A DNA stretch of 64,000 nucleotides. It comes from an uncultured Eubacteriaceae bacterium. Lineage in GTDB: Bacteria > Bacillota > Clostridia > Eubacteriales > UBA1433. Both the position numbers and the translations under genes were made by a program. Below, in pieces: positions 19,961-62,478 of this stretch; the first letter of the stretch is position 1, and each line of letters starts with the position of its first letter. Location: assembly GCA_964581565.1 (NCBI GenBank), contig CAZOOZ010000001.1, positions 131,470-195,469 of the forward strand. Direction: 5' to 3'. The notes below the pieces were generated by a model. The model was not told the DNA's origin and searched no databases. It was given only the letters and a program-made list of their open reading frames with translations.

Positions 19961-21274
19961 ATGCAAGATAAGAAAAAAGTATATATAGCTGTGTCCGCTG
20001 ATATTATTCATAGCGGACATATAAATGTAATCGAAGAAGGGGCAAAATACGGACGAGTCATTATAGGTCTTATGACAGATGAAGCGATCGCAGCCTATAA
20101 GAGACTTCCTTTGTTAGATTATGAGGCAAGAGAAAAAATATTTAAAAATATAAAAAATGTTTCAAAAGTAGTACCGCAAACAAGTCTGGATTACACAGAA
20201 AATTTATTAAAATTTAAACCTGATTATGTTCTTCATGGAGACGATTGGAAAAAAGGGATTCAATCGCTTGTAAGAGAAAATGTAATTACCATTCTTTCGC
20301 AGTGGGGCGGAGAATTGGTGGAAGTGCCCTATACAAAAGGAATTTCCGCTACAGACTTAGAGCAGCAATTCAGGCTGTTAAATAACACGCCTGATAACCG
20401 ACGTGCAAAACTTAAACGTTTACTTTCTTTAAAACCCTACATTAGTGCAATGGAAGCTTCCAACGGCTTGACAGGGCTTATCGTTGAAAATATCAGAGTT
20501 GAAAACCCCGTTACTGCGACAATGAAGGAATTTGATGCTATGTGGGTCAGCAGTTTATGTGACTCTACTTTTAAAGGAAAGCCCGACATTGAACTGGTAG
20601 ATTTAACAAGCAGAATAAACACAATCAATGAAATAATGGAAGTGACGACAAAGCCGATTATTTTAGACGGCGATACGGGCGGGAAAATCGAACATTTTGT
20701 GTATAACGTAAAAACACTTGAACGACTTGGTGTTTCCGCAATTATTATTGAAGATAAAACAGGGCTGAAGAAGAATTCGCTTTTTGGTACGGATGTTGAG
20801 CAGACAATGGACGACCCGCATTTATTCGCAAAAAAAATCCTGGCCGGAAAACAAGCGCAGGTTACAAGAGATTTTATGATTTTTGCGAGAATCGAAAGTT
20901 TGATTGCGGGCTATGGGGTTGATGAGGCATTATCGAGAGCGAAGATCTATATAGAAGCAGGTGCGGATGGCATTACAATTCACAGCAAAGAAAAAGACGG
21001 AAAAGAAGTCTTGGAATTTTTAGCAAAATTCAGAGAATATTCGACAGATATACCTATTATCGTTATCCCTACATCGTATAATTATATTAAAGAAGAAGAA
21101 TTGCATGCGGCTGGAGCGAATATTATTATTCATGCCAATCATTTACTTCGAAGTGCGTATCCTGCGATGGAAAAAACGGCAAAAATGATTTTGCAATGCG
21201 GACGAAGTAAAGAAGTAGACGAGTTTTGCATGCCTATAAATGAGATACTGACATTGATTCCAGGAGGCAAATAG
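19961..21274 (+). CDS. Bifunctional cytidylyltransferase (TagD-like, N-terminal) / phosphoenolpyruvate mutase (C-terminal)
   Basis: N-terminal HxGH (IIHSGH), GDDW and an RTxGISTT-like YTKGISAT motif. The C-terminal ICL/PEPM fold has SNGLTGLIVE, ILDGDTGG and IIIEDKTGLKKNS (the Ppm EDKxxxKxNS motif). The gene sits directly upstream of a Ppd gene. Confidence 0.85.
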   Translation: MQDKKKVYIAVSADIIHSGHINVIEEGAKYGRVIIGLMTDEAIAAYKRLPLLDYEAREKIFKNIKNVSKVVPQTSLDYTENLLKFKPDYVLHGDDWKKGIQSLVRENVITILSQWGGELVEVPYTKGISATDLEQQFRLLNNTPDNRRAKLKRLLSLKPYISAMEASNGLTGLIVENIRVENPVTATMKEFDAMWVSSLCDSTFKGKPDIELVDLTSRINTINEIMEVTTKPIILDGDTGGKIEHFVYNVKTLERLGVSAIIIEDKTGLKKNSLFGTDVEQTMDDPHLFAKKILAGKQAQVTRDFMIFARIESLIAGYGVDEALSRAKIYIEAGADGITIHSKEKDGKEVLEFLAKFREYSTDIPIIVIPTSYNYIKEEELHAAGANIIIHANHLLRSAYPAMEKTAKMILQCGRSKEVDEFCMPINEILTLIPGGK

Positions 21275-47864: not shown

Positions 47865-49691
47865 TTATCTGTTTCTTTGTCTTAATTTTATTATTATAAT
47901 ACATGCTGCAAGAACTATAAATACCGCACCTATGATAATGACGGCAGTGAGCGGGAATGTCGAGAGACTGACGGGATCAAAGCTAAATTCCAGCTGCTCT
48001 CCGTCATCTGTTGTGCATTTCACTTTCAGCGTAATATCTTTATCGTCTTTATAGTCTTGATCTGATAGCTGTATTACTTGTTTATCGCCAATGATAAGGG
48101 AATCGAGTGTGGCGAGCAAGGCGCCGTTTCTCGCATCGATGATTTCTATATTATTTAAATTTGCATTTCCGTCATTAAGCAGTGTCACATCAAAGCTGAC
48201 ATGTTCTTTATCTTTAGAATTGATATTTTCAATTAAGAGCATTGTGCTCGGTTCGTTTTTACGCTCGACTTCAAAAATCTGTTTCGATAATATGAAAGAA
48301 TTTGCCGTATTTTTTCCGTCTTGCAAAGTCACGCTCACACTGGGAGCACTGACAAAATCGTTTGTGAATTTACCGGTTGCTGTAAAGCTGAATTCTTCAC
48401 CTACAGCTATGCTGTCCGCGGTATAAATTTCTCCCAGAACACCATCCGATATTACCAAATCCGTCAGTTCATAGTCACTGACGTTTTTGGCGGTGTAGGA
48501 AATGGTCGCGTCTGTATAAAAAGGCAACTTATCCGTATCTATACTTCTTTGTATATCCAAACTTGGCGGAACAGAAGAAATGGTGAGTTCGGCGGTTGCT
48601 TTAAAAGGCGTGCTGCTGTCGGCTACATAGGCGTAAATTGCAAACGAATATTGCTTATCGGGTTCAATGGTCATATTTTCCGTAGATGAATTTGAAGCGC
48701 CTGATGCAACTGCGCCTATATCAATGATAGGTTCACTCGATGCTTTGCCGCTGTCATCAAGCAGATAGATAAAAGCTGTAATGACTTCGTAATCCGTATT
48801 ATTTTGAAAATCAAACATAATATCCATTTTTTCTGCGGTTTCGATATAGGTCTTTGCAGGCGTGATATCTAAAGTCAGTTTGCTCTCAATCGGTGAATCT
48901 ATAACTTTGCCTGTTACCTTAACTGTGGGAAGCTCTGTTCGTACACTTTCGCCTGTCATGGCATCCGTATATTCTAAAATAATGTACGAGTTGACGGAGC
49001 CTGCCGGAACAGAGATGTCTTTTTGAAACCGCTTGCTCTGGCCTTCTTTGAGATCGCCGAGGCTGCCAAGCAATCCGTAAGTGGAATCATAGACTTTTAC
49101 ATCGTTTGCTTTCCCGCCCGATGATAAGGTTACTTTTCCGCCGAAAAAGACAGGAAAGTCGCTGATGCCAACCGGATCGGCATCTGTGGTATAAGTGACG
49201 GTAAACTGGGGGGAATAAAGCTTGATCGTGTTACTTGAAGAGGAGTATTCAATCCATTCATTATCCAGTTTATACATAAGTTTGTAAGCAATAGTTATGC
49301 TTTTTCCGTATGTAGATTTCATCGTAACAGAGGTGCCGGTCACTTTTGCTGTTGAGTTTTGGTTTACTGTGGCATACAAGGTTGTCCAGTCTGAGACAAC
49401 GCTGCCGGCCGTGGATGTTATTTTTTCATAAATTGCTATTTCTATAGAACCAGTATACGTGGAGGAGTTTTTAATGCTGTATGTTTGAGCAAATACGCTA
49501 TCCTCGCTTACGGTATAAGTGTCATCTATTGTTTTACCCTGGCCGCTGCTTACAATTTGCGATACGCTTAGGTTCAAATTTATGCTGTCTTGTGTGAGAA
49601 GTTCTTCCGCTGAGATAAATGTCATACTAAAAAGTAAAAAGGTAGTTATAAATAATAACGATATAATCGGTTTAATATTTCTTTTTATCAT
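47865..49691 (-). CDS. Large membrane-anchored surface protein, beta-rich repeat domains, unknown function (608 aa)
   Basis: N-terminal signal peptide (LFSMTFISAEE). The body is S/T/V/Y-rich and looks like several Ig-like modules. A C-terminal TM segment is followed by the basic tail KLRQRNR. Confidence 0.7.
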   Translation of the reverse strand: MIKRNIKPIISLLFITTFLLFSMTFISAEELLTQDSINLNLSVSQIVSSGQGKTIDDTYTVSEDSVFAQTYSIKNSSTYTGSIEIAIYEKITSTAGSVVSDWTTLYATVNQNSTAKVTGTSVTMKSTYGKSITIAYKLMYKLDNEWIEYSSSSNTIKLYSPQFTVTYTTDADPVGISDFPVFFGGKVTLSSGGKANDVKVYDSTYGLLGSLGDLKEGQSKRFQKDISVPAGSVNSYIILEYTDAMTGESVRTELPTVKVTGKVIDSPIESKLTLDITPAKTYIETAEKMDIMFDFQNNTDYEVITAFIYLLDDSGKASSEPIIDIGAVASGASNSSTENMTIEPDKQYSFAIYAYVADSSTPFKATAELTISSVPPSLDIQRSIDTDKLPFYTDATISYTAKNVSDYELTDLVISDGVLGEIYTADSIAVGEEFSFTATGKFTNDFVSAPSVSVTLQDGKNTANSFILSKQIFEVERKNEPSTMLLIENINSKDKEHVSFDVTLLNDGNANLNNIEIIDARNGALLATLDSLIIGDKQVIQLSDQDYKDDKDITLKVKCTTDDGEQLEFSFDPVSLSTFPLTAVIIIGAVFIVLAACIIIIKLRQRNR

Positions 49692-49804: not shown

Positions 49805-50479
49805 TTAACATCTTTGTTGAGGCGGGAAAAATTCCGGGAAGGGAGTAACATTTTCATCCATGAATGTATCGCAGAATTCGATATCGCTTGGCATTTCATC
49901 ACATTCAGGCGGAATATCACAAAATCCATAAGTAGGAATTTTAAGTTGCACTTCACTGACAACTTTTACAATCAAGAATACGCCTATGCTCAGTTGTATC
50001 GCTTCTCTGTTGTCTACGAGATTGCTATAGCCCACTTCTGCAAAGCTTTCAACATAAGGCTCAAAACGGCCTTGTCTTAAATATTCAGCCGGCGCATAGA
50101 CAACAACTTCTATCGGGAAACGTATTTTATTATCGCATTGCATCGTTCCGTTTACAAGTAGTTTGGCGGGAAGTCTGAATATTTCTCCGTCACATTTTCT
50201 TTTTACGACTACGTAGACAGGTATTGCAGCGACAAATCTCATCAATGCATAATTTTCATTGATTTCTTGGAAAAACGGATAATCTCCCCAAGGTTCTACA
50301 TGTGCTTTGCCGAAGTCGGCATGTAAAAATTTATAATCATCGGCTGTACCCGTTGGAAAGTTTACGCAGAATAATGCTCGCTCCAAACAATCGCGCTTTG
50401 AACATGCGTCGTAAACTTTATTTACAATTAAACAATCAACTTCCATACAGCAATTGTTTACTTCAATTCTTTCATCCAA
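49805..50479 (-). CDS. Cysteine-rich hypothetical protein (224 aa, 12 Cys)
   Basis: Uninterrupted ORF with an N-terminal CC-x4-C-x9-C-x4-C-x6-C cluster and a C-terminal FCD..ECD..FCD...C cluster. It has no signal peptide and has its own terminator. Confidence 0.6.
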   Translation of the reverse strand: MDERIEVNNCCMEVDCLIVNKVYDACSKRDCLERALFCVNFPTGTADDYKFLHADFGKAHVEPWGDYPFFQEINENYALMRFVAAIPVYVVVKRKCDGEIFRLPAKLLVNGTMQCDNKIRFPIEVVVYAPAEYLRQGRFEPYVESFAEVGYSNLVDNREAIQLSIGVFLIVKVVSEVQLKIPTYGFCDIPPECDEMPSDIEFCDTFMDENVTPFPEFFPPQQRC

Positions 50480-51171: not shown

Positions 51172-51430
51172 ATACTAAAAATGATCCTTTCCTGCAAATT
51201 ATTACAAGATTACACGTATTCAAAATATATTATATATGAACAGCATTAAAATTACAAATAATTATTTTATGTTCAAAAGAAAATAAAGTAAAAATTTTAA
51301 GCTGCCAATCAGGATAAAAATATTAAATTTATTAAAGAATAGCAAGAGAACTATTGTTTTTATTTTGAAGAGCTTGTATTATTATACTACTGATAAAATT
51401 GAAGCATAAACGATATGTTTGAGGTGTAGA

Positions 51431-51787
51431 ATGGATTATATCAAAAAGGCTGAGTTAATAGCAAAATGGGCGGAAGAAAAAAATGCAGAAGATATTCATA
51501 TTATCGATGTTACGGCGTTGACGTCGATTACGGATGCGTTTGTGTTTTTAAGTGCTTCAAACGAACGCCAGTTGGATGCTATCACAGAGCATATTTACTT
51601 ACAGTCAAAAGAAAACGGAATGGATATACCCATCATTGAAGGCAAAAAAGAAAGCCGATGGATACTGCTTGATTTCGGCGATGTGGTCGTGCATGTTTTT
51701 CATAAAGAAGAGAGAAGTTATTACGATATTGAAAAGCTATGGGCTGACGGTAAATTTATACTTTTGCCCAGCAGAGATGAACACTAA
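51431..51787 (+). CDS. rsfS: Ribosome silencing factor RsfS (iojap-like)
   Basis: AEDIHIIDV ... TDAFVFLSASNERQLDAI ... WILLDFGDVVVHVF ... REYYDIEKLW-like motifs. I placed the start at the ATG at 51431, after GAGGTG. Confidence 0.88.
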   Translation: MDYIKKAELIAKWAEEKNAEDIHIIDVTALTSITDAFVFLSASNERQLDAITEHIYLQSKENGMDIPIIEGKKESRWILLDFGDVVVHVFHKEERSYYDIEKLWADGKFILLPSRDEH

Positions 51788-51951: not shown

Positions 51952-52106
51952 GTGTGTTTTCATATCAGCAATTTTTTTTGTGAAAGCTTAACTCTTCACG
52001 TAACAATCTTAAATGCTGACCAATTATCTTTAAGCAACCGCTTTCTTTTTGTTAATTACATTTTATTCGATAAAAGAATTATTAATTGTTGATATGATCC
52101 CTCTTC

Positions 52107-52135
52107 TTGACTAAATACATATACGGTGTTAAAAT
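52107..52135 (+). promoter_or_regulatory. Candidate promoter of the AraC-family gene
   Basis: TTGACT (52107-52112), a 17-nt spacer, then an extended -10 TGtTAAAAT (52127-52135). Confidence 0.5.
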
Positions 52136-52137
52136 TA

Positions 52138-52155
52138 AGTTAGCAAAGGCTAACT
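52138..52155 (+). promoter_or_regulatory. Palindromic box AGTTAGC-AAAG-GCTAACT (copy A)
   Basis: Perfect 7-bp arms located just downstream of the candidate -10 and 20 nt upstream of the AraC ATG. Copy B is at 53246. Confidence 0.55.
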
Positions 52156-52174
52156 GTAAAGCGGGGCTACTATT

Positions 52175-53161
52175 ATGGAGCAAGAGATTTCTATAAACTC
52201 AAAGGATGAATATTTCAGTGATCTCGTAAATCGCTATGGCTTCTCTTATGCGCAGGGTGAAAATACGGCAACCCTGATACCTCCAAAAGAGCTTGGTAGC
52301 GGATATATCAAAGCGGTTCAAGCAAGCGGCGATATTGACATCGGGATCATAGATCTTTTTCTGGCGCGGCCGATTATTTCATATTATGATAATTATTCAA
52401 ATACCTGTGAGGTGACATATTGTTTCAGCGGACATATTTTCTACTCGGAAACTGGTATCACAAAGGCAAATTTAAATAAAAATGAAATGGGAATATATGC
52501 ACTTCCATACAGTCGGGGAATGACCATGATTCCTTCGGGTAAGCGGGTATGTGTTGTGTCGGTGGAATCAAAGAAGCCCTTTCACGATCGACTGCCGTAT
52601 ACCGAGAAGTGCACACAATATGACGATACGTCAGTGAAGAAATTATTACACCAGTTGGTACAGCCGAAAAAGGCAAATGCAAAAATCCACAACTATTTCA
52701 GTCAAATTATAGAAAATAATATCGGTCGGGAATTAAAGAATACATACCTTGATTCGTTAGGCAAAGTCTTATTATCTGATCTGTGGCAGGAAAATATCAT
52801 ACTTCCTCTCACCGGAGGGAAACGCACGGTTTATTCCGGTTTTGAAAGAAACGCACTACTGGAAGCCAAAGAAATTTTATGTGACCATTATTCTTCTCCG
52901 CCAACTATTCCTGAGTTGGCCAAGATGGTTGCGCTCAACGAGCATAAGCTAAAATCTGGTTTCCGTGATATGTATGGCAAGAGCATATATGAATACGTCC
53001 GCAGTTTAAGGATGAAAAACGCAAGCCACCTGCTTGAGAATGTTGATTTAAGCATCAGCGAGATTGCGGGGATGGTGGGGTACGTGAACACCAGCCATTT
53101 TGCCCGCGCCTTCCGAAATGAATATGGCTTAAACCCCAGCGATTTTCGTCTTGGAGTGTAA
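52175..53161 (+). CDS. AraC-family transcriptional regulator (328 aa)
   Basis: C-terminal double HTH (TIPELAKMVALNEHKLKSGFRDMYG ... ISEIAGMVGYVNTSHFARAFRNEYGLNPSDFR) and a ~220-aa N-terminal putative ligand domain. Confidence 0.9.
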   Translation: MEQEISINSKDEYFSDLVNRYGFSYAQGENTATLIPPKELGSGYIKAVQASGDIDIGIIDLFLARPIISYYDNYSNTCEVTYCFSGHIFYSETGITKANLNKNEMGIYALPYSRGMTMIPSGKRVCVVSVESKKPFHDRLPYTEKCTQYDDTSVKKLLHQLVQPKKANAKIHNYFSQIIENNIGRELKNTYLDSLGKVLLSDLWQENIILPLTGGKRTVYSGFERNALLEAKEILCDHYSSPPTIPELAKMVALNEHKLKSGFRDMYGKSIYEYVRSLRMKNASHLLENVDLSISEIAGMVGYVNTSHFARAFRNEYGLNPSDFRLGV

Positions 53162-53204
53162 AAAATCCCGGTTGGAGCGGCGGGAACAACATCATAACTG
53201 GTAA

Positions 53205-53238
53205 AATAAGTGTTGATTTGTAGGCGCTTATTTTTTTT
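53205..53238 (+). terminator. Rho-independent terminator after the AraC gene
   Basis: Stem AATAAGTG / CGCTTATT followed by a T-run. Confidence 0.6.
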
Positions 53239-53245
53239 GAATTGA

Positions 53246-53263
53246 AGTTAGCAAAGACTAACT
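53246..53263 (+). promoter_or_regulatory. Palindromic box AGTTAG-CAAAGA-CTAACT (copy B)
   Basis: 6-bp arms, 21 nt upstream of the permease TTG start. It is embedded in a 34-nt stretch that is 29/34 identical to copy A by manual alignment. Confidence 0.55.
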
Positions 53264-53283
53264 ATATAGTGGGGGTACATATA

Positions 53284-54222
53284 TTGTGGAAATTCTTGTG
53301 TAGACGGGTAATTCATCTGATAACAGTCTTGATTGGTATATCGTTGTTATCTTTTGTCCTCGCCAATATATCGGCCGTTGATCCGGCAGAAGCTTATGCA
53401 AGGCGCGTTTCAAAAACAGCCAGTGAAGAAATGGTCGAGCAATACCGCGAAGAATTGGGATTTAATCAGTCGATACCAGAGCAGTATTGGAATTGGCTGA
53501 AGAATGTTGTACGCCTGGATTTTGGCAACTCTTATATCACCGGCCGGCCGGCCATGCAGGATTTGTTGAGCGTTATGCCTATGACACTTATCTTATCCGG
53601 CTTATCGTGTATCCTGATCATCGCCGGCGCTGTTCCGCTGGGGATACTGGCGGCGTTCAAAGAAGGAAAATGGGTTGATAAACTGGTTATGGGGTTGTCT
53701 TTTGTCTCAATCTCTGTGCCGGGATATTTTCTTGGTTTGCTGTGCCTGCTGGTTTTTGGCATATATTTAAGGCTGATGCCGATCGTGGGCCATAACCACC
53801 CGATAACATTATTATTTGCTTCGCTGGTTTTATCTTTTCCGATGGTCGGTGCACTTGCACGGATACTGCGTTCACTTTTACTGGAAAATCAAAGAAGTGA
53901 ATATGTTGTATATGCGAAGGCCAGAGGTATCGGCAGGCGTAGGGTGATGACCAACCATCTGCTGCGAAATGCTGCCCCTTCCTGTATTGTGATGTATGGC
54001 CAAAACATCGGGTATCTGCTTGCGGGCACAGCGATTGTCGAAACGATTTTTTCAATATCGGGGTTGGGACAGTATGCGTTGAACGCCGCAGTCAACCGGG
54101 ATTTTCCGGTCATCAACGCCTATATTGTCCTGATGGCGCTTTGTTTTGTGGTATGCAACGTTACGGCCGAAGTCTGCGGCCGGCTGCTCAATCCCAGCCT
54201 GAACCGGGAGGACCGTGCATGA
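53284..54222 (+). CDS. Peptide/nickel-family ABC importer permease (DppB/NikB-like)
   Basis: (M)WKFLCRRVIHLITVLIGISLLSFVL N-terminus typical of the family. TTG start 8 nt after GTGGGGG. 6 TM segments. Confidence 0.85.
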   Translation: MWKFLCRRVIHLITVLIGISLLSFVLANISAVDPAEAYARRVSKTASEEMVEQYREELGFNQSIPEQYWNWLKNVVRLDFGNSYITGRPAMQDLLSVMPMTLILSGLSCILIIAGAVPLGILAAFKEGKWVDKLVMGLSFVSISVPGYFLGLLCLLVFGIYLRLMPIVGHNHPITLLFASLVLSFPMVGALARILRSLLLENQRSEYVVYAKARGIGRRRVMTNHLLRNAAPSCIVMYGQNIGYLLAGTAIVETIFSISGLGQYALNAAVNRDFPVINAYIVLMALCFVVCNVTAEVCGRLLNPSLNREDRA

Positions 54223-55049
54223 GACGGCTAAAACATAATAAAAGTGTGATGGTGGGTCTTGGATTCATTACGATCATTGTATTGTGCGCTGTGTTTGCGG
54301 GTGAACTGTCCCCCAATGACCCTATGAAAATCAATATGAGCCTGCGTTTTACGGAACCCTCGCAGAGCTTTCCGTTGGGAGCCGACGCATACGGCAGATG
54401 CGTTTTTTCCCGTCTACTGTATGGGGCAAGGTATTCATTGGGGCTTGCTTTTTTGGTCATGATCGGGATCGTTATTACGACAATACCGTCTGGAATGGCC
54501 GCGGTGTATAAAGGTGGTTTTTTTGAGCGCATATTCCTGTGGCTGTGCGATATCAGCATGGCCCTTCCCCCCACCGTGTTGGTGCTTGCCATCATGGGCG
54601 TGATAGGAAACGGAATTGCCAATCTGGTGTTTAGTACGCTATTTTCCTATTGGGGTTGGTATGGGCGGATGGTACGCAGCTATACGCAGACTGAGCTGGC
54701 CAAAGGGTATGTCACATACGCCGTAACAGGTGGGGCTTCAGGCGTTTCCGTGTTGGTAAGGCAGGTACTTCCCAATATATTCCCCGGCCTGATTATACTA
54801 TTCGCGCTGGGAATCGGAGATACCATACTGATGATTTCAGGGTATTCCTTTTTGGGCATTGGCCTTCCGTCCGGCCTGCCGGAATGGGGCGCCATGCTAA
54901 ACGACGCCAAAAGCATGCTGTTGCAGGCACCGCAGTATGCCATTTATCCGGGTGTCTGTGTTTTTATCACCGTATGTGCTTTTAATTTGTTTGGAGAAGG
55001 AATGAGAAAGGCGCTCGCCGTAGGCGGCATGGGAGTAAATTATGAATAA
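54219..55049 (+). CDS. Peptide/nickel-family ABC importer permease (DppC/NikC-like)
   Basis: The ATGA overlap with the upstream stop gives the start MRRLKHNKSVMVGLGF. It contains the binding-protein-dependent transport signature region. Confidence 0.85.
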   Translation: MRRLKHNKSVMVGLGFITIIVLCAVFAGELSPNDPMKINMSLRFTEPSQSFPLGADAYGRCVFSRLLYGARYSLGLAFLVMIGIVITTIPSGMAAVYKGGFFERIFLWLCDISMALPPTVLVLAIMGVIGNGIANLVFSTLFSYWGWYGRMVRSYTQTELAKGYVTYAVTGGASGVSVLVRQVLPNIFPGLIILFALGIGDTILMISGYSFLGIGLPSGLPEWGAMLNDAKSMLLQAPQYAIYPGVCVFITVCAFNLFGEGMRKALAVGGMGVNYE

Positions 55050-55854
55050 AGACACTATTTTGGCTGTACGGGATTTATCCGTTCGTTATCTCAGTACCGG
55101 CGTCAATATCGAGAAAATGACTTTTGAGATCGGGCGTGGAAAGGTTTTGGGTTTGGTGGGGGAAAGCGGCAGCGGGAAAAGCACCGTATGCAACGCCATT
55201 CTCGGCCTGCTGGATTCCGCCGCAGTCCAGATATCCGGCAGTGTTCGACTGCAGGACAAAGAGATTTTACCGCTGTTTTGGGACGAACGCGAGAAGATTA
55301 ACGGCAAGGAGATCGGTGTCATTCTACAAAATTCCATGGCTGCCTTCAACCCCTGCATGCGAATACGGACCCATTTCATTGAAACGCTGTATACGCACTT
55401 GCTTTGCAGTAAACGTGATGCGACACTGTATGGGATCGAACTGTTGCGTAAGGTCGGTCTGCCCGATGGACAGAGAGTTATGCGCAGTTATCCGTATCAA
55501 TTGAGCGGTGGCATGCTCCAACGCGTGATGATTGCAATTGCAATATCACTGAATCCGGTGCTGATTATCGCGGACGAGCCGACGACGGCGCTTGATACCG
55601 GCAATCAGGCCATCATCTTGGAACTTCTTTCTTTCATAATGAAGGAATATAAGCCGGCCATGCTTTTGGTCTCCCATGATATGGATACTGTTACGGCTTT
55701 GGCGGACGATATTGCCGTGATGAAAGACGGCCGCGTTTTGGAACAGGGTACCAAAACAAAAATACTGCATGATCCGCAGGTTGGCTACACGAAGGAATTG
55801 CTGGCCTCGGCAGGTTTAATGGAGGAGACGGATTGCTTGAGATCAGGAATGTAA
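55042..55854 (+). CDS. ABC importer ATP-binding protein (DppD/NikD-like)
   Basis: Walker A GESGSGKST, signature LSGGMLQRVMIA, Walker B IIADEPTTALD. Confidence 0.88.
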   Translation: MNKDTILAVRDLSVRYLSTGVNIEKMTFEIGRGKVLGLVGESGSGKSTVCNAILGLLDSAAVQISGSVRLQDKEILPLFWDEREKINGKEIGVILQNSMAAFNPCMRIRTHFIETLYTHLLCSKRDATLYGIELLRKVGLPDGQRVMRSYPYQLSGGMLQRVMIAIAISLNPVLIIADEPTTALDTGNQAIILELLSFIMKEYKPAMLLVSHDMDTVTALADDIAVMKDGRVLEQGTKTKILHDPQVGYTKELLASAGLMEETDCLRSGM

Positions 55855-56606
55855 GAAAGAAATATGGCCATCAGGTTGCATTGGATGATGTATCGTTATC
55901 CATTGCACCCGGCGAAAGCGTATCCTTGATCGGGGAGAGCGGTAGCGGAAAAAGCACGCTTTCAAGGCTTATTCTCGCCCTTGAAAAGCCGTCGGGTGGC
56001 GTCATACTTTGGAACGGCAGAAACGTATCCGAGTTGCGTGGCAAAAAGTTGTACCGGGACATTCAGCCGGTCTTTCAGGACAACACGGGCTGTTTCAATC
56101 CCCGGCGCAGAGTAATGGACAGCCTTGACGAGCCGATGAGAAACTTACTTGGGATACCTGCAGCCGAGCGGGAAAAAAGAATTTGCAGCTTGCTTGAACG
56201 GGTTGGTCTCCCGGTGGATATTGCAAACCGCTATCCGCACGAGCTGTCCGGTGGGCAGCGCAGGCGCGTTTGCATCGCAAGAGCCATCTCCATCCATCCC
56301 GAGCTGGTAATTCTTGATGAAGCGGTTACCGGCCTGGACGCTACGGTCATGATGAAAATACTGGCCCTGCTGAAAGCGTTGCAGCGGGAGACCGGATGCG
56401 CTTATCTGTTTATCACCCACGATTTGCGCGCCGCCCTGTATATATCTGAAAAAATCGCGGTGATGAAAGACGGCCGCATCGTGGAAACCGCCGAGCATGT
56501 CTCTTCATTGTCTGCGTTTAAACATCCTTTTTCCAAACAGCTTATAGGAAACAGGAAATATATATTACTAAATCAGGAGGATTATAATGAAATACTACAT
56601 GAGTAA
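55833..56606 (+). CDS. ABC importer ATP-binding protein (DppF/NikE-like)
   Basis: TTG start 5 nt after GGAGGAG. Walker A GESGSGKST, signature LSGGQRRRVCIARA, Walker B VILDEAVTGLD. Confidence 0.88.
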   Translation: MLEIRNVRKKYGHQVALDDVSLSIAPGESVSLIGESGSGKSTLSRLILALEKPSGGVILWNGRNVSELRGKKLYRDIQPVFQDNTGCFNPRRRVMDSLDEPMRNLLGIPAAEREKRICSLLERVGLPVDIANRYPHELSGGQRRRVCIARAISIHPELVILDEAVTGLDATVMMKILALLKALQRETGCAYLFITHDLRAALYISEKIAVMKDGRIVETAEHVSSLSAFKHPFSKQLIGNRKYILLNQEDYNEILHE

Positions 56607-58188
56607 ACTAATTACACTGCTGCTTGCTGTCGTACTGGCTTTTTCGCTGGCGGCGTGCCAAAGCAGCAACGATGAAAGCGATATTTCAGAAATCATAATC
56701 GGCGAATCGGTGGACTTCTCCAGCTTCGATCCCATAGGTATCTATGACGGTCAGGGTTTTTACCATTATACCAAACTCGTCTATGAAACTCTCGTTGATT
56801 TTGAAGACGGAATTGCCGTACCTTCTCTTGCAGAGAGCTGGGAAAATGACGGAGATACATGGACATTTTATTTGAGAGAGGATGTGACATTCTCGGACGG
56901 CGAAGCGTTCAACGCGGAAGCGGTCAAACTCAACTTTGACACCATGCGGGAAAATATGATGGATTATATATCATACTATGGCGGCGTGTCCAGAATCACC
57001 GAAATAGAAATCGTTGACGAATACACGGTCGCTTTCCATTATGACGCGCCGTACTATGCTGTTTTACAGGACTTAAGCGCAGGGGCTTTTGGTATCATGT
57101 CGCCGAGTCTGTTTTCGGACGGCAATATCCCTTATAACAATGTGCTTACCGAAACGGCCGGAACGGGGCCGTATGTGATACAGGAAGGGAATTATACTGT
57201 TGGCGCTTCCTACAACTTTGTACGCAACGAAAATTACTATGGCAGTGCTGCCGGTCCAGATGGGTTCGCGGTTAAAATCATCACGGATGCCGACAGTCGT
57301 ATGATGGCGCTGCAATCCGGCGAAATCGACTTATTGTATGGTTCTTATCAGGTGACTTATGATATGTTTGACTATCTGGCCAAGCTGGATAACGTGCAGG
57401 CGGTGCAGTCCGAAACCACATATGCAACGCGCAACCTGCTGCTAAATACGACTTCCGAAATTCTGAGCGATCCGCTGGTGCGTCAGGCGATCCAACACGG
57501 CACCGACAAGGAACAGATCAACAGCACGGTACTGCACGGGATGGAGTCTGCTGCGGACACGCTGTTCCCTTCCACCCTGCCCTACTGCGACGTGGCGCAG
57601 GTCATCTATGACTTCGACCCGGACTTGGCCGCAAGCCTGCTGAGTGATGCCGGTTGGAGTGAGCTGAACGAAGAGGGTATCCGTATCAAAGACGGACAAA
57701 CGCTTTCCCTCGATGTGATTTATATGAGCGAACGCTCCACGGACGAGCAGATTCTCATGGCCTTCAAAGGGCAGATGGCTGAAATCGGAATACAAATTAA
57801 TATCAACGGCTATGAGGCAATGACATGGTGCGAAAAAGGGATGGCAGGCGAATTTGACATTACCGTGAACGATACCTACGGCTTCCCGCAAGATCCGCAA
57901 GTGTTCTTGGCTGCCATGCTGGATTATGCCGTGGATTATCCTGCACAGCAGGGCCTTGCGCAAAAGCCGGAAATCGATGCGCAGATCACGGTGATGCTGA
58001 ACACAACGGATGAAGCAGTGATCCAGCAAGCCTATACCTATGTGCTGACGACATTACAGGACGAGGCGGTGAATGTGCCGACGACAAATATCCGGGAAAT
58101 GGCCGTCTTCAATTCAGAGAAAATCAAAAGCGTACATTTTTCGGACGACCCAACCTGCTGCGATGTTTGCGGAATCGTACTAAAATAG
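56587..58188 (+). CDS. Family-5 (peptide/nickel/opine-type) substrate-binding lipoprotein
   Basis: Lipobox (FSLAACQSS), 533 aa, SBP_bac_5-like pattern (YTKLVYETLVDFEDG ... PSLAESWE ... DGDTWTFYLREDVTFSDGE). Confidence 0.85.
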   Translation: MKYYMSKLITLLLAVVLAFSLAACQSSNDESDISEIIIGESVDFSSFDPIGIYDGQGFYHYTKLVYETLVDFEDGIAVPSLAESWENDGDTWTFYLREDVTFSDGEAFNAEAVKLNFDTMRENMMDYISYYGGVSRITEIEIVDEYTVAFHYDAPYYAVLQDLSAGAFGIMSPSLFSDGNIPYNNVLTETAGTGPYVIQEGNYTVGASYNFVRNENYYGSAAGPDGFAVKIITDADSRMMALQSGEIDLLYGSYQVTYDMFDYLAKLDNVQAVQSETTYATRNLLLNTTSEILSDPLVRQAIQHGTDKEQINSTVLHGMESAADTLFPSTLPYCDVAQVIYDFDPDLAASLLSDAGWSELNEEGIRIKDGQTLSLDVIYMSERSTDEQILMAFKGQMAEIGIQININGYEAMTWCEKGMAGEFDITVNDTYGFPQDPQVFLAAMLDYAVDYPAQQGLAQKPEIDAQITVMLNTTDEAVIQQAYTYVLTTLQDEAVNVPTTNIREMAVFNSEKIKSVHFSDDPTCCDVCGIVLK

Positions 58189-58251
58189 AAATCCCGATCG
58201 GAGCGGTGAAAATCCGGTTCGGGGTGGTATAAAACCAAACATACCGTTAGA

Positions 58252-58283
58252 ATGGGCATTGAGGGATTGATGCCCATTTTTTT
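58252..58283 (+). terminator. Intra-locus rho-independent terminator immediately upstream of the exporter-fold ABC genes
   Basis: Perfect 8-bp stem ATGGGCAT / ATGCCCAT, then TTTTTTT, then AAGGAGG and the ATG at 58299. Confidence 0.7.
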
Positions 58284-58298
58284 AAGGAGGCAATCAGG

Positions 58299-60080
58299 AT
58301 GACTAAGCGAAATAGAAAAAAGGGGCTTTGGGCGATTATGGCCCCGGTAAGTCGCTATGTCAAAGCGGCCATAGGCCTTTCGGCATTCGGTGGGATAAGC
58401 GCACTTTTCGGGTATGTTTTTTTGGCGTACGTGCTTTCAATCGCCACAGGCGGAAGCATAGCATTTTTCGGACTGACATTGCGTTTTAACCAGGCGTTTT
58501 TGATACTGGCGCTGGTGGTGATCCTTTCCTTCGTGATTAAATATTATTCGACTGTCGTATCACATCTCGGCGCTTTTAAGCTTGAGGAGATATTAAGAAC
58601 GGATATCACCGCGCATCTGGCAAAGGTGCCGTTGGGATACGTCATTTCCACAGGCACAGGGGCATTTAAAAAAGTCCTGCTGGATGACGTCAAAAATCTT
58701 CACGCTTTCGTCGCGGATAGTACGCCGATGATCGGCAGGAGCATCGCCACACCTGCTGCGTCCCTCGCCGCCCTTATCATCATTGATTACAGGTTGGCGG
58801 TTATCGCTTTGAGCGTATTGCTGCTCGGCGCCGCAATCATGTATTTTGCTATGAAGGATGAAGCCAGCCGCAGGAGCAAATATGAGCAAAGCCAGTCGGA
58901 TATCAATAAAGCGGTGATCGAGTTTGTTCAGGCGATGCCGGTTGTCAGGACGTTTGACGACGGCACGACTTCTTTTAAGCGCTATAATAAAGCGCTTCAT
59001 CGATACCGTATCCATTTGAAAGCATGGATCGCGGCGACAAGCACACCTGCCAGAATCTCCATGATTATACTAAGCCCGATGCCGACACTGATTGCGGTCA
59101 CGATAGCGGGTATCTTTTTTGTGTCGGGCGGCAGTTTATCGTTTGCCGTTTTCATTGCCGCGTTGCTGGTCAGCACCGGCATGGCGGATGTTTTGATGCC
59201 GCTGATGTGGGCGAGCGAGTTCATCAAAATATCTCAGGCGGCAGCCGTCAGGATCCATGAAATTATGGATTTGCCCGAACTTAGAAGCGCTTCGGCTTTT
59301 CAAAAACCAACAAAGTTTGATGTCGTTTTTGACAACGTTTCATTTAAGTATAATGAAAAAGATCCATACGCGTTAAAGAATATCAGCTTCAGTGTCCTGC
59401 AAAACACGATCACAGCACTCGTGGGACCAAGCGGTGCCGGGAAAAGTACCGTTGCAAAGCTCATCCCCAGGTTCTGGGACGTGACGGAAGGCAGCATAAA
59501 AATAGGCGGTATAAATATAAGGAATATGGATGCGGCGGCGCTCATGGATACCGTTTCATTCGTTTTTCAGGATACGTTTTTATTCAATGATACGCTTGCG
59601 AACAATATCAAAATCGCCAATGACAATGTAACATATGAATCCATGATAGAGGCTGCAAAAGCAGCGCAGATTCATGATTTTATCATGACCTTGCCGGGCG
59701 GATACGAAACAATGGCCGGAGACAGAGGCACAAGCCTATCCGGCGGCCAGAAGCAAAGGATTACGATTGCGAGAGCCATTTTAAGAAACGCCCCGATTAT
59801 TGTCCTTGATGAAGCGACGGCCTTTACTGACCCCGAGAACGAAGAAGAGATCATCAAAGCGCTGTCCAACCTGATGAAAAACAAAACAGTCATCGTTATC
59901 GCGCACAGGCTTTCGACGATTAGGAACGTAGAGCAAATCGTGGTTTTTGATCAGGGAGAGATATCAGAGATAGGTCAGCATGATGAGCTGTTAAAAAAAC
60001 GGGGGATATACGAGAAACTGTGGCGCAATTTTGACAAAGCGCAGAATTGGGATTTACACCATATGGGAGATATAAAATGA
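58299..60080 (+). CDS. ABC half-transporter, fused TMD-NBD (type I exporter fold), subunit 1
   Basis: 6 TM segments plus an NBD with Walker A GPSGAGKST, signature LSGGQKQRITIARA and Walker B IVLDEATAFTD. Confidence 0.88.
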   Translation: MTKRNRKKGLWAIMAPVSRYVKAAIGLSAFGGISALFGYVFLAYVLSIATGGSIAFFGLTLRFNQAFLILALVVILSFVIKYYSTVVSHLGAFKLEEILRTDITAHLAKVPLGYVISTGTGAFKKVLLDDVKNLHAFVADSTPMIGRSIATPAASLAALIIIDYRLAVIALSVLLLGAAIMYFAMKDEASRRSKYEQSQSDINKAVIEFVQAMPVVRTFDDGTTSFKRYNKALHRYRIHLKAWIAATSTPARISMIILSPMPTLIAVTIAGIFFVSGGSLSFAVFIAALLVSTGMADVLMPLMWASEFIKISQAAAVRIHEIMDLPELRSASAFQKPTKFDVVFDNVSFKYNEKDPYALKNISFSVLQNTITALVGPSGAGKSTVAKLIPRFWDVTEGSIKIGGINIRNMDAAALMDTVSFVFQDTFLFNDTLANNIKIANDNVTYESMIEAAKAAQIHDFIMTLPGGYETMAGDRGTSLSGGQKQRITIARAILRNAPIIVLDEATAFTDPENEEEIIKALSNLMKNKTVIVIAHRLSTIRNVEQIVVFDQGEISEIGQHDELLKKRGIYEKLWRNFDKAQNWDLHHMGDIK

Positions 60081-61846
60081 ATAAACTTAAGTTTACATCT
60101 GTTTTCAACATTTACAAATTGACGCTGGAACTGGCGGGAGAAAAAGCGGACAGCTTCAAAAGAAGCATGATCTGGTTTACAATTGCTTTTGTGCTGCAGG
60201 GGTTTGCATTCGGGTTGTTTTATCCGCTTTTAACACGCCTGTTTGCCGAATCTGTCGTGATGATGGATATATGGCCTTATCTTGGGCTGATGGTTCTTTT
60301 CAGCACTATATCTTCTGCGGCAAAATGGAAAGGGTATGATTTTGATTATACGGGCAACATCGTCGATATCACGCACGACTTGAGAACAAAGCTGGGCGCC
60401 AGCCTGAGAAGGATGCCTCTAGAGAAATTATCCGACTATAAAACGGGCGAGCTGAACGCCATATTTTCAAGCAATGTGGATGATTCCGTATTACACATGG
60501 GCTCGGTTGCCGCCATGCTATTGGAGCTGGTGATCGTTCCGGTTATAATCGCTGCCGTGACTTTTTTCGTCGATTGGCGGCTAGCCCTTTTAATGCTGCT
60601 GCTTTTTCCGCTGGCCATACCGATCTGCCGCTGGATGAGGAAGCTTGCCCTTGATGAGAAGACAGAGCTGGCCCTTGCCAATGCGGCGCTTGAATCGGGA
60701 TTTATCGAGTATATTCAGGGGCTGCCGGTGCTAAGAGCCGTCAACAAAACGGGCATCAATGCGCAGAACCTGCAGGGGTCTATCAAGTATGTCAGGTCGG
60801 TGCAAAAGCAGGGCCTTTATAAGCAGCAGTTTCCATTTGTTTTAATGGGTGTTTTGATGGAGGCAATACTCCTCATCATTTTATTGGTTGGAGCTTGGTT
60901 TGTTGGAGGCCATACTCTGGCACTCGTGACGCTGGGAGCCGGTATTGTGATTGTGGCCAGGCTGACAGAGCCTTTATCATTATTTTTGGGCGTTGTCACG
61001 CTGTTTGATTTGATGGATTCCTCGTTCAAAAGAATCAAGTCGGTATTGAAAACAGATCCGCTTGAAACCGACAAGCCCATTCAAACGCCCGAAAGCTTTG
61101 ATATAGAGTTCAGCCATGTGGATTTTACATACGCTGGACAGGATATAAAAGCGATCAACGATATCAGCTTTTATATACCCAATCGAACGATGACGGCTAT
61201 CGTCGGGCATTCGGGTTGCGGCAAAACAACGCTAACACGGCTAATGATGAGATATGCGGATGTTCAAAAGGGAAATATCAGAATCGGGGGAGTTAATATA
61301 AAGAATATGAATCCTGATGATTTGATGAAAAATATATCTGTGGTGTTTCAGGATGTATATTTATTTGACGATACGATTTTGAACAATATCAAAATGGCAA
61401 ACCCGAATGCAACGGATAAAGAAGTGGAAACAGCGGTGAACTCAGCCCACTGCCATGAGTTTATATCTAGATTGCCAGATGGATACGATACAAAGGTGGG
61501 CGATATCGGAGGAAGCTTATCCGGCGGGGAAAGGCAAAGAATCAGCATTGCGAGGGCTATTTTAAAAAATGCGCCTATTGTGATTCTGGATGAACCGACC
61601 GCAGCGCTGGATACTGAAAGCGAGGTGGCGGTACAACATGCGATCGATAAGCTTGTGAAGGATAAGACCGTTATTGTAATCGCCCATCGGTTATCGACGA
61701 TTGCTGGAGCGGATCATATATTGGTCGTGGACAACGGCGTCATCATCGAAAGCGGGAAACATGGCGAGCTGGTGGCAAAAAGAGGGCAATACTTTAATAT
61801 GTGGTCTGCACAACAACGAGTAAAAGAATGGCATATAGATTCATAA
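60077..61846 (+). CDS. ABC half-transporter, fused TMD-NBD (type I exporter fold), subunit 2
   Basis: The ATGA overlap gives the start MNKLKFTSVF. The NBD has Walker A GHSGCGKTT, signature LSGGERQRISIARA and Walker B VILDEPTAALD. Confidence 0.88.
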   Translation: MNKLKFTSVFNIYKLTLELAGEKADSFKRSMIWFTIAFVLQGFAFGLFYPLLTRLFAESVVMMDIWPYLGLMVLFSTISSAAKWKGYDFDYTGNIVDITHDLRTKLGASLRRMPLEKLSDYKTGELNAIFSSNVDDSVLHMGSVAAMLLELVIVPVIIAAVTFFVDWRLALLMLLLFPLAIPICRWMRKLALDEKTELALANAALESGFIEYIQGLPVLRAVNKTGINAQNLQGSIKYVRSVQKQGLYKQQFPFVLMGVLMEAILLIILLVGAWFVGGHTLALVTLGAGIVIVARLTEPLSLFLGVVTLFDLMDSSFKRIKSVLKTDPLETDKPIQTPESFDIEFSHVDFTYAGQDIKAINDISFYIPNRTMTAIVGHSGCGKTTLTRLMMRYADVQKGNIRIGGVNIKNMNPDDLMKNISVVFQDVYLFDDTILNNIKMANPNATDKEVETAVNSAHCHEFISRLPDGYDTKVGDIGGSLSGGERQRISIARAILKNAPIVILDEPTAALDTESEVAVQHAIDKLVKDKTVIVIAHRLSTIAGADHILVVDNGVIIESGKHGELVAKRGQYFNMWSAQQRVKEWHIDS

Positions 61847-61935
61847 GCCTATGGATACATTTTTACGACGTTACAGCAAACCAATTTATGTGATTTGCGC
61901 AAAAACAGCCTGAAATCAATCTTATCTCTTGCGTA

Positions 61936-62478
61936 TTATGCGTAGATCTTGATTCCTGTTGAACTCATAACGTCTAACGCGTTTTTATGCATAGCTTCGT
62001 CAAAGCTGGCACATGCTGAGGAATCGACCATAATGCTGCTGTCAAAAAAGCGCGACTGTAAAATAAATGCGTTGGCAATCACGCATATATTGGTCACGAC
62101 TCCGCATAGTTCGATTTCTTCTATGGACGATTTTTTCTGCACGGATTCAATAAAATCAGGTAGCATTGCTGTGCCGTAGGTGTTTTTGTTGATGAAATGA
62201 ATATGTTTATTCTCCAAGTTTTCAAACTCTCTCATTTTGCCGTATAAATGCCAGCCTTCTTCGTTCAGTTGACAGTGGAGGGGAAATAGAGAGCCTTCTT
62301 TGCTGTCTTTATAGCTGTCGTCATGTGTATCCATCGTAAAAAAAACTTCATAGCCGTTTTGCAGATATGTTTTAATTTTATCATAAATTGTGTCTTCTAT
62401 GTTTTTTGCACCTTCAAATCCGAGGGAACCTGTCACGAAATCATTTTGGTAATCGACAACAATCAATATTTTACACAT
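61936..62478 (-). CDS. Isochorismatase-family cysteine hydrolase (nicotinamidase-like)
   Basis: ILIVVDYQNDF and ELCGVVTNICV (catalytic Cys) motifs. I placed the start at the ATG at 62478, after AGGAGAA. Confidence 0.8.
   Translation of the reverse strand: MCKILIVVDYQNDFVTGSLGFEGAKNIEDTIYDKIKTYLQNGYEVFFTMDTHDDSYKDSKEGSLFPLHCQLNEEGWHLYGKMREFENLENKHIHFINKNTYGTAMLPDFIESVQKKSSIEEIELCGVVTNICVIANAFILQSRFFDSSIMVDSSACASFDEAMHKNALDVMSSTGIKIYA

Follow-up and report, generated by a model that had tools for sequence, protein, structure and literature searches.

A duplicated GTTAG-N6-CTAAC palindrome as probable metal-repressor operator of an AraC-importer island in an uncultured Eubacteriaceae bacterium

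A stretch of 64,000 nucleotides from an uncultured Eubacteriaceae bacterium (assembly GCA_964581565.1, contig CAZOOZ010000001.1, positions 131,470 to 195,469; in the following the window) encodes an AraC-family regulator and, directly behind it, a Nik/Cnt-like importer operon, and a palindrome with the core GTTAG-N6-CTAAC, here called the box, is present immediately upstream of both. The duplicated palindrome is real, and the box is quite probably a 16-bp operator which accommodates one dimer of a small two-domain, metal-dependent repressor of the DtxR/MntR family, as part of a two-tier control together with AraC. The box motifs, their strict spacing and placement and their statistical association with DtxR-like and iron-uptake genes are direct observations.

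The first-pass annotation of this DNA had described the duplication as a 34-nucleotide (nt) leader, with copy A at 52137-52170 and copy B at 53245-53278, and its coordinates, its sequences, its count of 29/34 identities and its distances to the start codons (4 nt from copy A to ATG 52175 and 5 nt from copy B to TTG 53284) were all reproduced. Box A, GTTAGCAAAGGCTAAC (52139..52154, unstranded), starts 3 nt past a -10 hexamer and belongs to a perfect 7-4-7 palindrome, AGTTAGC/GCTAACT (52138-52155), and box B, GTTAGCAAAGACTAAC (53247..53262, unstranded), begins 9 nt after the T-run of the araC terminator and ends 8 nt before a Shine-Dalgarno (SD)-like run, a placement which is the same in the loci L002, L081 and L167. 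With up to three mismatches allowed, the 19-mer AAGTTAGCAAAGRCTAACT matches only the two copies in the entire window, where shuffled sequences lead to an expectation of 0.03, and the exact core occurs only at these two positions (52139-52154 and 53247-53262), against 0.02 in Markov simulations. The SD-like elements, as read from the sequence, are the plus-strand G-runs GGGG (52163..52166) and GGGGG (53271..53275), each 8 nt before its start codon, with GGAGG in araC orthologs where the window has GGGG. Outside the ten core bases copies A and B still agree at 19/24 other positions, but the leader is not a separate element, because part of this flank similarity is shared by unrelated boxes such as those preceding feoB: an A-rich 5' flank and CTAACT-A/G-T are followed 6-10 nt on by a G-rich SD, and the box-then-SD layout of copy B is also found before feoB genes, e.g. 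CTAACtatttGGAGGGGG. What is duplicated is thus an operator followed by a short spacer and an SD sequence, and the extended box consensus reads AAGTTAG-N6-CTAACTT.

Copy A had further been placed just 3' of a good extended -10 promoter, and a near-consensus promoter TTGACT-17-TGnTAAAAT is indeed present on the plus strand at 52107..52135, with the -35 hexamer TTGACT at 52107-52112, a 17-nt spacer, TG at 52127-52128 and the -10 hexamer at 52130-52135, which amounts in a consensus scan to 10/12 matches plus the TG. The same arrangement precedes the araC orthologs of L001, L002, L003, L081, L167 and L168. As the -10 hexamer ends at 52135, the usual 7-nt rule predicts the araC transcription start at about A52142, inside the left arm of box A.

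The association with a repressor family emerges from 80 metagenome loci which were picked solely for encoding a DtxR-like protein. In their 567 kb, 42 exact boxes are found against 0.3 expected, and the enrichment around DtxR/MntR-family repressor genes is about 100-fold; of such loci with a length of at least 8 kb, 25/45 carry the box. The spacing is strict: the N6 form accounts for 62 sites in the 1.4 Mb of related loci and is the only enriched one, with spacers N2-N5 and N7-N10 found 0-1 times each. An AraC homolog is encoded in merely 2 of the 35 box-bearing DtxR-like loci (the 80 metagenome loci and L082-L086 taken together), and the other 33 have none. Among the first genes that face these boxes (n=39, non-redundant) are 14 FeoA, 3-4 FeoB and six genes of the DtxR family itself, followed by three exporter-type ABC (ATP-binding cassette) genes and one gene each for a siderophore-type binding protein (Peripla_BP_2), a flavodoxin, a MatE protein and an AraC protein. 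The box targets, feoA/feoB, a Peripla_BP_2/FecCD importer, SBP_bac_5 importers, flavodoxin and, in the window, the Nik/Cnt-like importer, match the acquisition or sparing of metal. The DtxR loci also repeat the two layouts of the window, either a -10 hexamer, 3 nt and the box, or the box with a G-rich SD 6-10 nt further on. At the feoA promoters of L096 (7517-7547), L099, L106, L121, L122 and L124, boxes stand as abutting pairs or triplets with an exact offset of 15 bp (GTTAGnnnnnnCTAA-GTTAGnnnnnnCTAAC), which is suggestive of two or three adjacent dimers.

The candidate repressor is a protein of 121-130 amino acids consisting of Fe_dep_repress and Fe_dep_repr_C, with MntR, DtxR and IdeR as the nearest solved structures; among profile models it scores best against MntR, yet with 91 vs 153 bits it stays under the NCBIfam MntR cut-offs. 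Its gene can stand directly at boxes of araC loci: in L030 the box separates araC from a divergently oriented DtxR-family gene for 121 amino acids (the only such gene detected by tblastn in 80 AraC loci), and L168 has the box between a DtxR-like gene and a divergent araC ortholog with 84% identity. The contig of L081, with an AraC ortholog of 81% identity, carries a small DtxR-like gene too, and in L084 (Ruminiclostridium hungatei) such a gene stands next to an araC and an ABC pair that has two boxes. Loci with no araC nearby include L085/L086 (Syntrophobotulus), where the DtxR-like gene neighbours an ABC pair that carries a box and stands beside a TetR gene, and L082 (Clostridium aceticum), where boxes are found in front of a Peripla_BP_2/FecCD importer and of a gene for a family-5 binding protein, and a one-mismatch box lies 6 nt past the TATAAT of the DtxR-like gene itself. 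The region directly upstream of araC in L081 (3285-9399) is a metal-homeostasis neighbourhood, in which the DtxR-like gene stands beside a Fur-family gene, a ZnuA/ABC-3 transporter and ArsP_1/DUF1980.

Conservation around araC itself was assessed by a comparison of 80 AraC loci from reference genomes. GTTAG-N6-CTAAC precedes araC in the orthologs L001-L003, L006 and L007, L004 (Petrotogaceae) has the symmetric variant ATTAGA-N4-TCTAAT, and the box is also found before paralogs with 25-29% identity (L010, L028-L030, L037, L044, L053 and L058); the orthologs with a box span 42-88% identity. Often a second copy precedes the neighbouring operon. The box is mostly situated 2-4 nt past the -10 hexamer, frequently with a TG upstream, and its distance to the start codon ranges from 6 to >300 nt. 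Outside this group, AraC loci of 699 kb in total, with Paenibacillus and Brevibacillus homologs whose DNA-binding domains are 42-45% identical, contain zero boxes. The closest relative of the window is L167, with an 88% identical AraC and the same gene order. L167 has two further boxes (19978-20046) before a DUF2325-DUF3793-flavodoxin operon directly behind the ABC pair; at this position the window has other genes and no third box, and boxes in L115 target DUF3793 and flavodoxin as well.

Comparison with described operators places the box in the DtxR family with regard to geometry. Of the repeats in TTAGGTTAGSCTAACCTAA, those numbered 1 and 3 are touched by one and the same IdeR dimer, and a consensus for a single dimer, TTAGGNNNNCCTAA, has been shown as well (PMC8464063). 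The AAGTTAGCnnnnGCTAACTG of the window has exactly this DtxR-family geometry: it shares with the IdeR/DtxR iron box the TTAG/CTAA cores and the TTAG-N6-CTAA spacing of one dimer on repeats 1 and 3, and with the single-dimer consensus the 8-N4-8 format; the family of the candidate repressor, the iron-uptake type of target and the overlap with the promoter are common as well. Differences are that each window box holds a single dimer site, that the inner base is A, C or T and not G while the outer G/C is fixed (GTTAG/CTAAC), that the spacer is AT-rich, and that the candidate protein is devoid of the SH3-like third domain and its hosts are anaerobic Firmicutes-type bacteria. Where boxes abut, as at some feoA promoters (L096, L099, L106, L121), they are 15 bp apart, unlike the overlapping dimers of the actinobacterial iron box with their 5-bp offset. 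The enterobacterial MntR consensus, AACATAGCnnnnGCTATGTT in the form in which PMC1698941 cites it from Patzer and Hantke, has the same 8-N4-8 palindrome format and, in that form, the positions AA..TAGC-N4-GCTA..TT in common with the box, with CA instead of GT at positions 3-4; the regulon considered here, comprising feoAB, flavodoxin and siderophore-type and Nik-type importers, suggests iron and not manganese. None of the consensuses of Fur, Zur, NikR, CsoR/RcnR, Rex, CRP/FNR, CIRCE and cre fits both the half-site and the spacing.

Several observations weigh against the proposed control by a DtxR-like repressor and AraC. With tblastn, no DtxR-family gene was detected in the 64-kb window, and therefore a copy elsewhere in the host genome has to be assumed. 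In L081 the promoter of the DtxR-like gene lacks a box, so that autoregulation cannot be general, and the association of boxes with DtxR genes could in principle reflect co-regulation by another factor. A strong -10 match just upstream is present at about half of the gene-facing boxes, and only at that share. In distant AraC loci many box targets resemble drug efflux or resistance functions, namely MATE, DrrA-type ABC, ABC-F-like (with two ATPase domains) and glyoxalase-like proteins, and not metal uptake; the regulon may thus be broader than metal uptake, or members of the family may answer other signals. The GTTAG half-site is moreover also a signature of MepR, a repressor considered below. 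Finally, an ATCC-like motif resembling the candidate AraC site introduced in the next paragraphs follows a TetR-family gene in L085, with no araC within 6 kb.

The first alternative, that the palindrome is AraC's own site and mediates negative autoregulation and direct control of the importer, is improbable. The regulator (328 amino acids, 52175..53161, plus strand; Pfam HTH_18/HTH_AraC) combines a cupin-like N-terminal sensor with an AraC DNA-binding domain, is the only regulator encoded in the GC-rich island of the window and belongs to a subfamily which the box accompanies across wide divergence, often with two copies per locus, one at araC and one at the neighbouring operon. However, the box is equally enriched before feoAB, flavodoxin and DtxR-like genes without a nearby AraC (33/35 loci), it is missing from the loci of the Paenibacillus and Brevibacillus homologs, and it remains invariant while AraC diverges down to 25% identity, whereas ATCC-type repeats, located where AraC sites classically lie, vary along with the protein. 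The AlphaFold2 model (predicted local distance difference test 90) displays the cupin-like sensor and the AraC DNA-binding domain, with ToxT, Rns, CuxR and BgaR as best Foldseek matches. An additional DNA-binding module was considered and rejected, since the model gives the N-terminal domain the form of a cupin-like sensor, comparable to ToxT, Rns and BgaR. Close relatives of this AraC in a large protein collection amount to only about 40, mostly from metagenome-assembled genomes. Sites of AraC-family proteins usually consist of half-sites that are asymmetric and about 17-19 bp long, in many cases repeated directly at a 21-bp period and overlapping the -35 region; the box, symmetric, 16-20 bp long and located at or past the -10 hexamer, is unlike such sites. 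Of the earlier proposal of a shared DNA operator, the control of regulator and importer by one trans-acting repressor is thus supported, and the autoregulation by AraC is not, as 33 of the 35 box-bearing DtxR loci are devoid of AraC.

A likelier activator site of AraC, and probably the real one, is an ATCC-type motif, which has the features of an AraC site: it is asymmetric, can be repeated at the helical period and covers a -35 region without -35 consensus. The motif ATCCCnnTYGGRGCGG stands 5-7 nt past the araC stop codon in the window and in L001-L004, L007, L008, L081, L167 and L168, and in each case a TAnAAT hexamer follows 36-37 nt further downstream. In the window the candidate site ATCCCGGTTGGAGCGGCGG (53165..53183, plus strand), to which AraC would bind, is found 37 nt upstream of the -10-like hexamer TAAAAT (53202..53207, plus strand), whose position relative to the motif is kept in orthologs and which marks a putative AraC-dependent importer promoter; this promoter has no -35 consensus, as would be expected if it depends on an activator. 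The strict motif was found only in araC loci, and looser tandem versions, ATCCnnnTTnGG, occur behind AraC homologs of many other Firmicutes. In L085 (Syntrophobotulus glycolicus; 2150-2232) and in L086, a ATCCCGGTTGGAGGG motif and then a box precede an ABC pair.

The next alternative, marginally less probable again, assigns the box to a MarR-family (MepR-like) or other multidrug-sensing repressor of efflux modules, with the link to DtxR being secondary. The operators GTTAGNNNNCTAAC of MepR, a MarR-family protein of Staphylococcus aureus, are inverted GTTAG repeats with a 4-bp linker which cover the -10 hexamer and start site of mepR and of mepA, encoding a MATE pump (PMC3936728). The likeness to the box thus extends to an identical inverted half-site over the -10/start region of the regulator's own gene and to a MATE pump as target; several box targets are indeed MATE proteins or ABC exporters. 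On the other hand, the linker of the box has 6 bp and not 4 bp (N4 = 0, N6 = 62 in the 1.4 Mb), and feoAB, flavodoxin and siderophore-type importers are not drug-efflux targets, the targets here being iron-uptake genes. No MarR-family gene was found next to any box examined or in the island, and the Pfam MarR matches are weak overlaps on the winged helix of the DtxR family. TetR genes that are homologous to each other adjoin boxes in L037, L044 and L085, and these neighbours were rejected as binders, being absent from most box loci including the window. Other small open reading frames (ORFs) near boxes, considered as binders as well, encode RsfS, a DDE transposase or a LysM protein or have no Pfam match.

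The second proposal of the first-pass annotation, namely that the palindrome works at the RNA level, as a hairpin of the 5' untranslated region which controls stability or translation, is very improbable and is not supported here: the 41-42-nt leaders of both copies do fold (-9.0 and -6.6 kcal/mol), both copies lie 15-20 nt 5' of a G-rich SD, and the box would be fully transcribed in L028, L029 and L037 and at copy B, but folding does not go beyond shuffled sequences (z -1.03 and -1.09), the Rfam scan of the whole window gave no match at gathering score, and the predicted start at A52142, with the -10 of araC ending 3 nt before the box, would remove most of the 5' arm and leave a truncated leader with z +0.2. 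The arms are conserved in sequence and do not covary, with the G-to-A change in copy B breaking a pair without compensation; some boxes are located upstream of a -35 hexamer or more than 200 nt away from the nearest gene; spacing relative to the start codon is widely variable, whereas spacing relative to the -10 often is not; and strict N6 spacing with A/T flanks is typical of protein-DNA recognition. The tie to the promoter, the folding z of about -1, the missing Rfam match and the invariance of the arm sequences together argue for a DNA site.

Between araC and the importer, copy B had been described as directly following the araC terminator with no convincing promoter in between. The terminator is present, as a hairpin AAAAUAAGUGUU / GGCGCUUAUUUU with a T-run on the plus strand (53203..53238; hairpin 53203-53234, from RNA folding), which has equivalents in L002, L081 and L167 and was missed by the terminator scan because it contains fewer than three G-C pairs. 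The second part of the description has to be amended in view of the conserved ATCC motif, the -10-like TAAAAT and a promoter predicted by the promoter scan, TTGAAG-17-TATAGT (53242-53270), which has palindrome B within its spacer and is not conserved in L002, L081 and L167. The 5' arm of the terminator overlaps the -10 at 53202-53207 and the predicted start of the next promoter. Box B thereby becomes part of a compact design, in which the -10 of a putative promoter is the 5' arm of the upstream gene's terminator and the operator is placed between terminator and ribosome-binding site.

The importer operon (53284..58188, plus strand; Pfam and NCBIfam) comprises five genes, a permease (53284-54222), a permease ORF (54141-55049), two ATPases (55042-55854 and 55833-56606) and a family-5 binding protein (56587-58188, plus strand), with NikA proteins as nearest solved structures. 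Best NCBIfam matches are NikB/C/D/E/A and CntA/C/D/F, all under the equivalog cut-offs. The TTG start at 53284 is supported by the N-terminal permease domain of Pfam, which aligns from residue 1, and by the conservation of a TTG-TGG/TGT-AAA start in orthologs.

Downstream follows a pair of exporter-fold ABC half-transporters of 593 and 599 amino acids (58299..61846, plus strand; Pfam ABC_membrane and ABC_tran, NCBIfam). The same pair is located behind araC orthologs in L001, L167 and L168, and similar ABC pairs face boxes in L010, L053, L058, L084 and L085. Two tandem ATCC-type repeats with a 21-bp period (58191-58209 and 58212-58230, plus strand) are candidate AraC sites of the ABC-pair promoter, and such a tandem pair is also found before the ABC pair in L001 and L167. 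A -10-like TAGAAT (58248-58253, plus strand) is directly followed by the hairpin GGGCATTGAGGGATTGATGCCC (58254-58275) and a T-run up to 58283, a unit which is conserved in L001, L003, L005, L008 and L167. No GTTAG box is present in this promoter region (58248-58283). Before the ABC pair, the loop region (CATTGAG..ATCAGTG) shows sequence conservation in L001, L003, L005 and L167. At 58248-58283 as well as at 53202-53238 the terminator of the upstream gene and the promoter of the next operon overlap, and transcripts from the putative promoters at 53202 and 58248 would lack the 5' arm of the terminator.

The araC-importer-ABC-pair block has a G+C content of 0.42-0.50, compared with about 0.34-0.39 in most other DNA of the window, and begins (window 52000-62000) just past rsfS (51419-51787) and its terminator. 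Orthologous blocks are found in Christensenellaceae, Anaerovoracaceae, Clostridia and Petrotogaceae genomes, once (L001) with an adjoining DDE transposase. The G+C contrast, the scattered distribution of orthologous blocks and the transposase beside one of them suggest that the araC-transporter block has moved by horizontal transfer. Further upstream, by a ZapA-like gene, two minus-strand ORFs (47865-49691, 608 amino acids, and 49805-50479, 224 amino acids) have no Pfam match at E <= 0.001.

For the control by a DtxR-like repressor and AraC we propose the following course, in which the binder, the metal sensed, the transcription starts and the role and ligand of AraC are inferred. When metal is plentiful, the metal-loaded repressor would occupy box A, which in the strong araC promoter covers positions from about -3 to +13, and thereby block initiation. 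On box B, between the araC terminator and the ribosome-binding site of the importer, it would stop read-through from araC as well as transcripts of the putative AraC-dependent promoter that lies within the araC terminator. As metal becomes scarce, the repressor would leave and AraC would be made, which, probably in a form with ligand in the cupin domain, would activate the Nik-like importer and the ABC pair through ATCC sites that overlap the -35 regions. As the ABC-pair promoter has no box, it would sense metal only through the amount of AraC. The metal is most likely Fe2+, because feoAB, flavodoxin and siderophore-type importers are among the box targets.

A combination of a metal repressor with an AraC-type activator has precedents in the uptake of metallophores, which is controlled by Fur together with PchR in Pseudomonas and YbtA in Yersinia. 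Common features would be a metal-repressor box at -10/+1 of the activator and transport genes, an AraC-type site overlapping the -35 region and exporter-fold ABC pairs among the targets, such as YbtPQ. In the window the proposed repressor is, however, DtxR and not Fur, the importer is of the Nik/Opp type, and biosynthetic genes are absent. The box is an ordinary kind of control element and not a surprising mechanism, but so far undescribed in this group of anaerobic bacteria. Searchable literature on such a box with AraC, nikA, metallophores or DtxR/feo/Clostridium yielded no description of the box or of a regulon, which is weak evidence of absence.

Whether an undescribed iron-responsive regulon of a small two-domain DtxR repressor exists in anaerobic Firmicutes-type bacteria, with mobile AraC-transporter islands carrying the operator into the metal sensor of their host, appears evenly balanced to us. 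If it does, this regulon would work with single-dimer operators and cover feoAB, flavodoxin and several transporter modules, and the islands in Christensenellaceae, Anaerovoracaceae, Clostridia and Petrotogaceae would possess a two-tier circuit, a repressor followed by a ligand-sensing activator, for the uptake of a metallophore. If the control by a DtxR-like repressor and AraC is as proposed, genes with the vague annotations 'AraC family regulator', 'peptide/nickel ABC transporter' and 'ABC transporter ATP-binding/permease' would constitute an uptake island which is induced by metal starvation and is probably metallophore-dependent. For a widespread protein family labelled MntR or 'metal-dependent regulator' in databases, AAGTTAG-N6-CTAACTT would be a usable consensus, which could serve the prediction of iron regulons across uncultured anaerobes; in such anaerobes a DtxR-type sensor may operate besides Fur or in its place.

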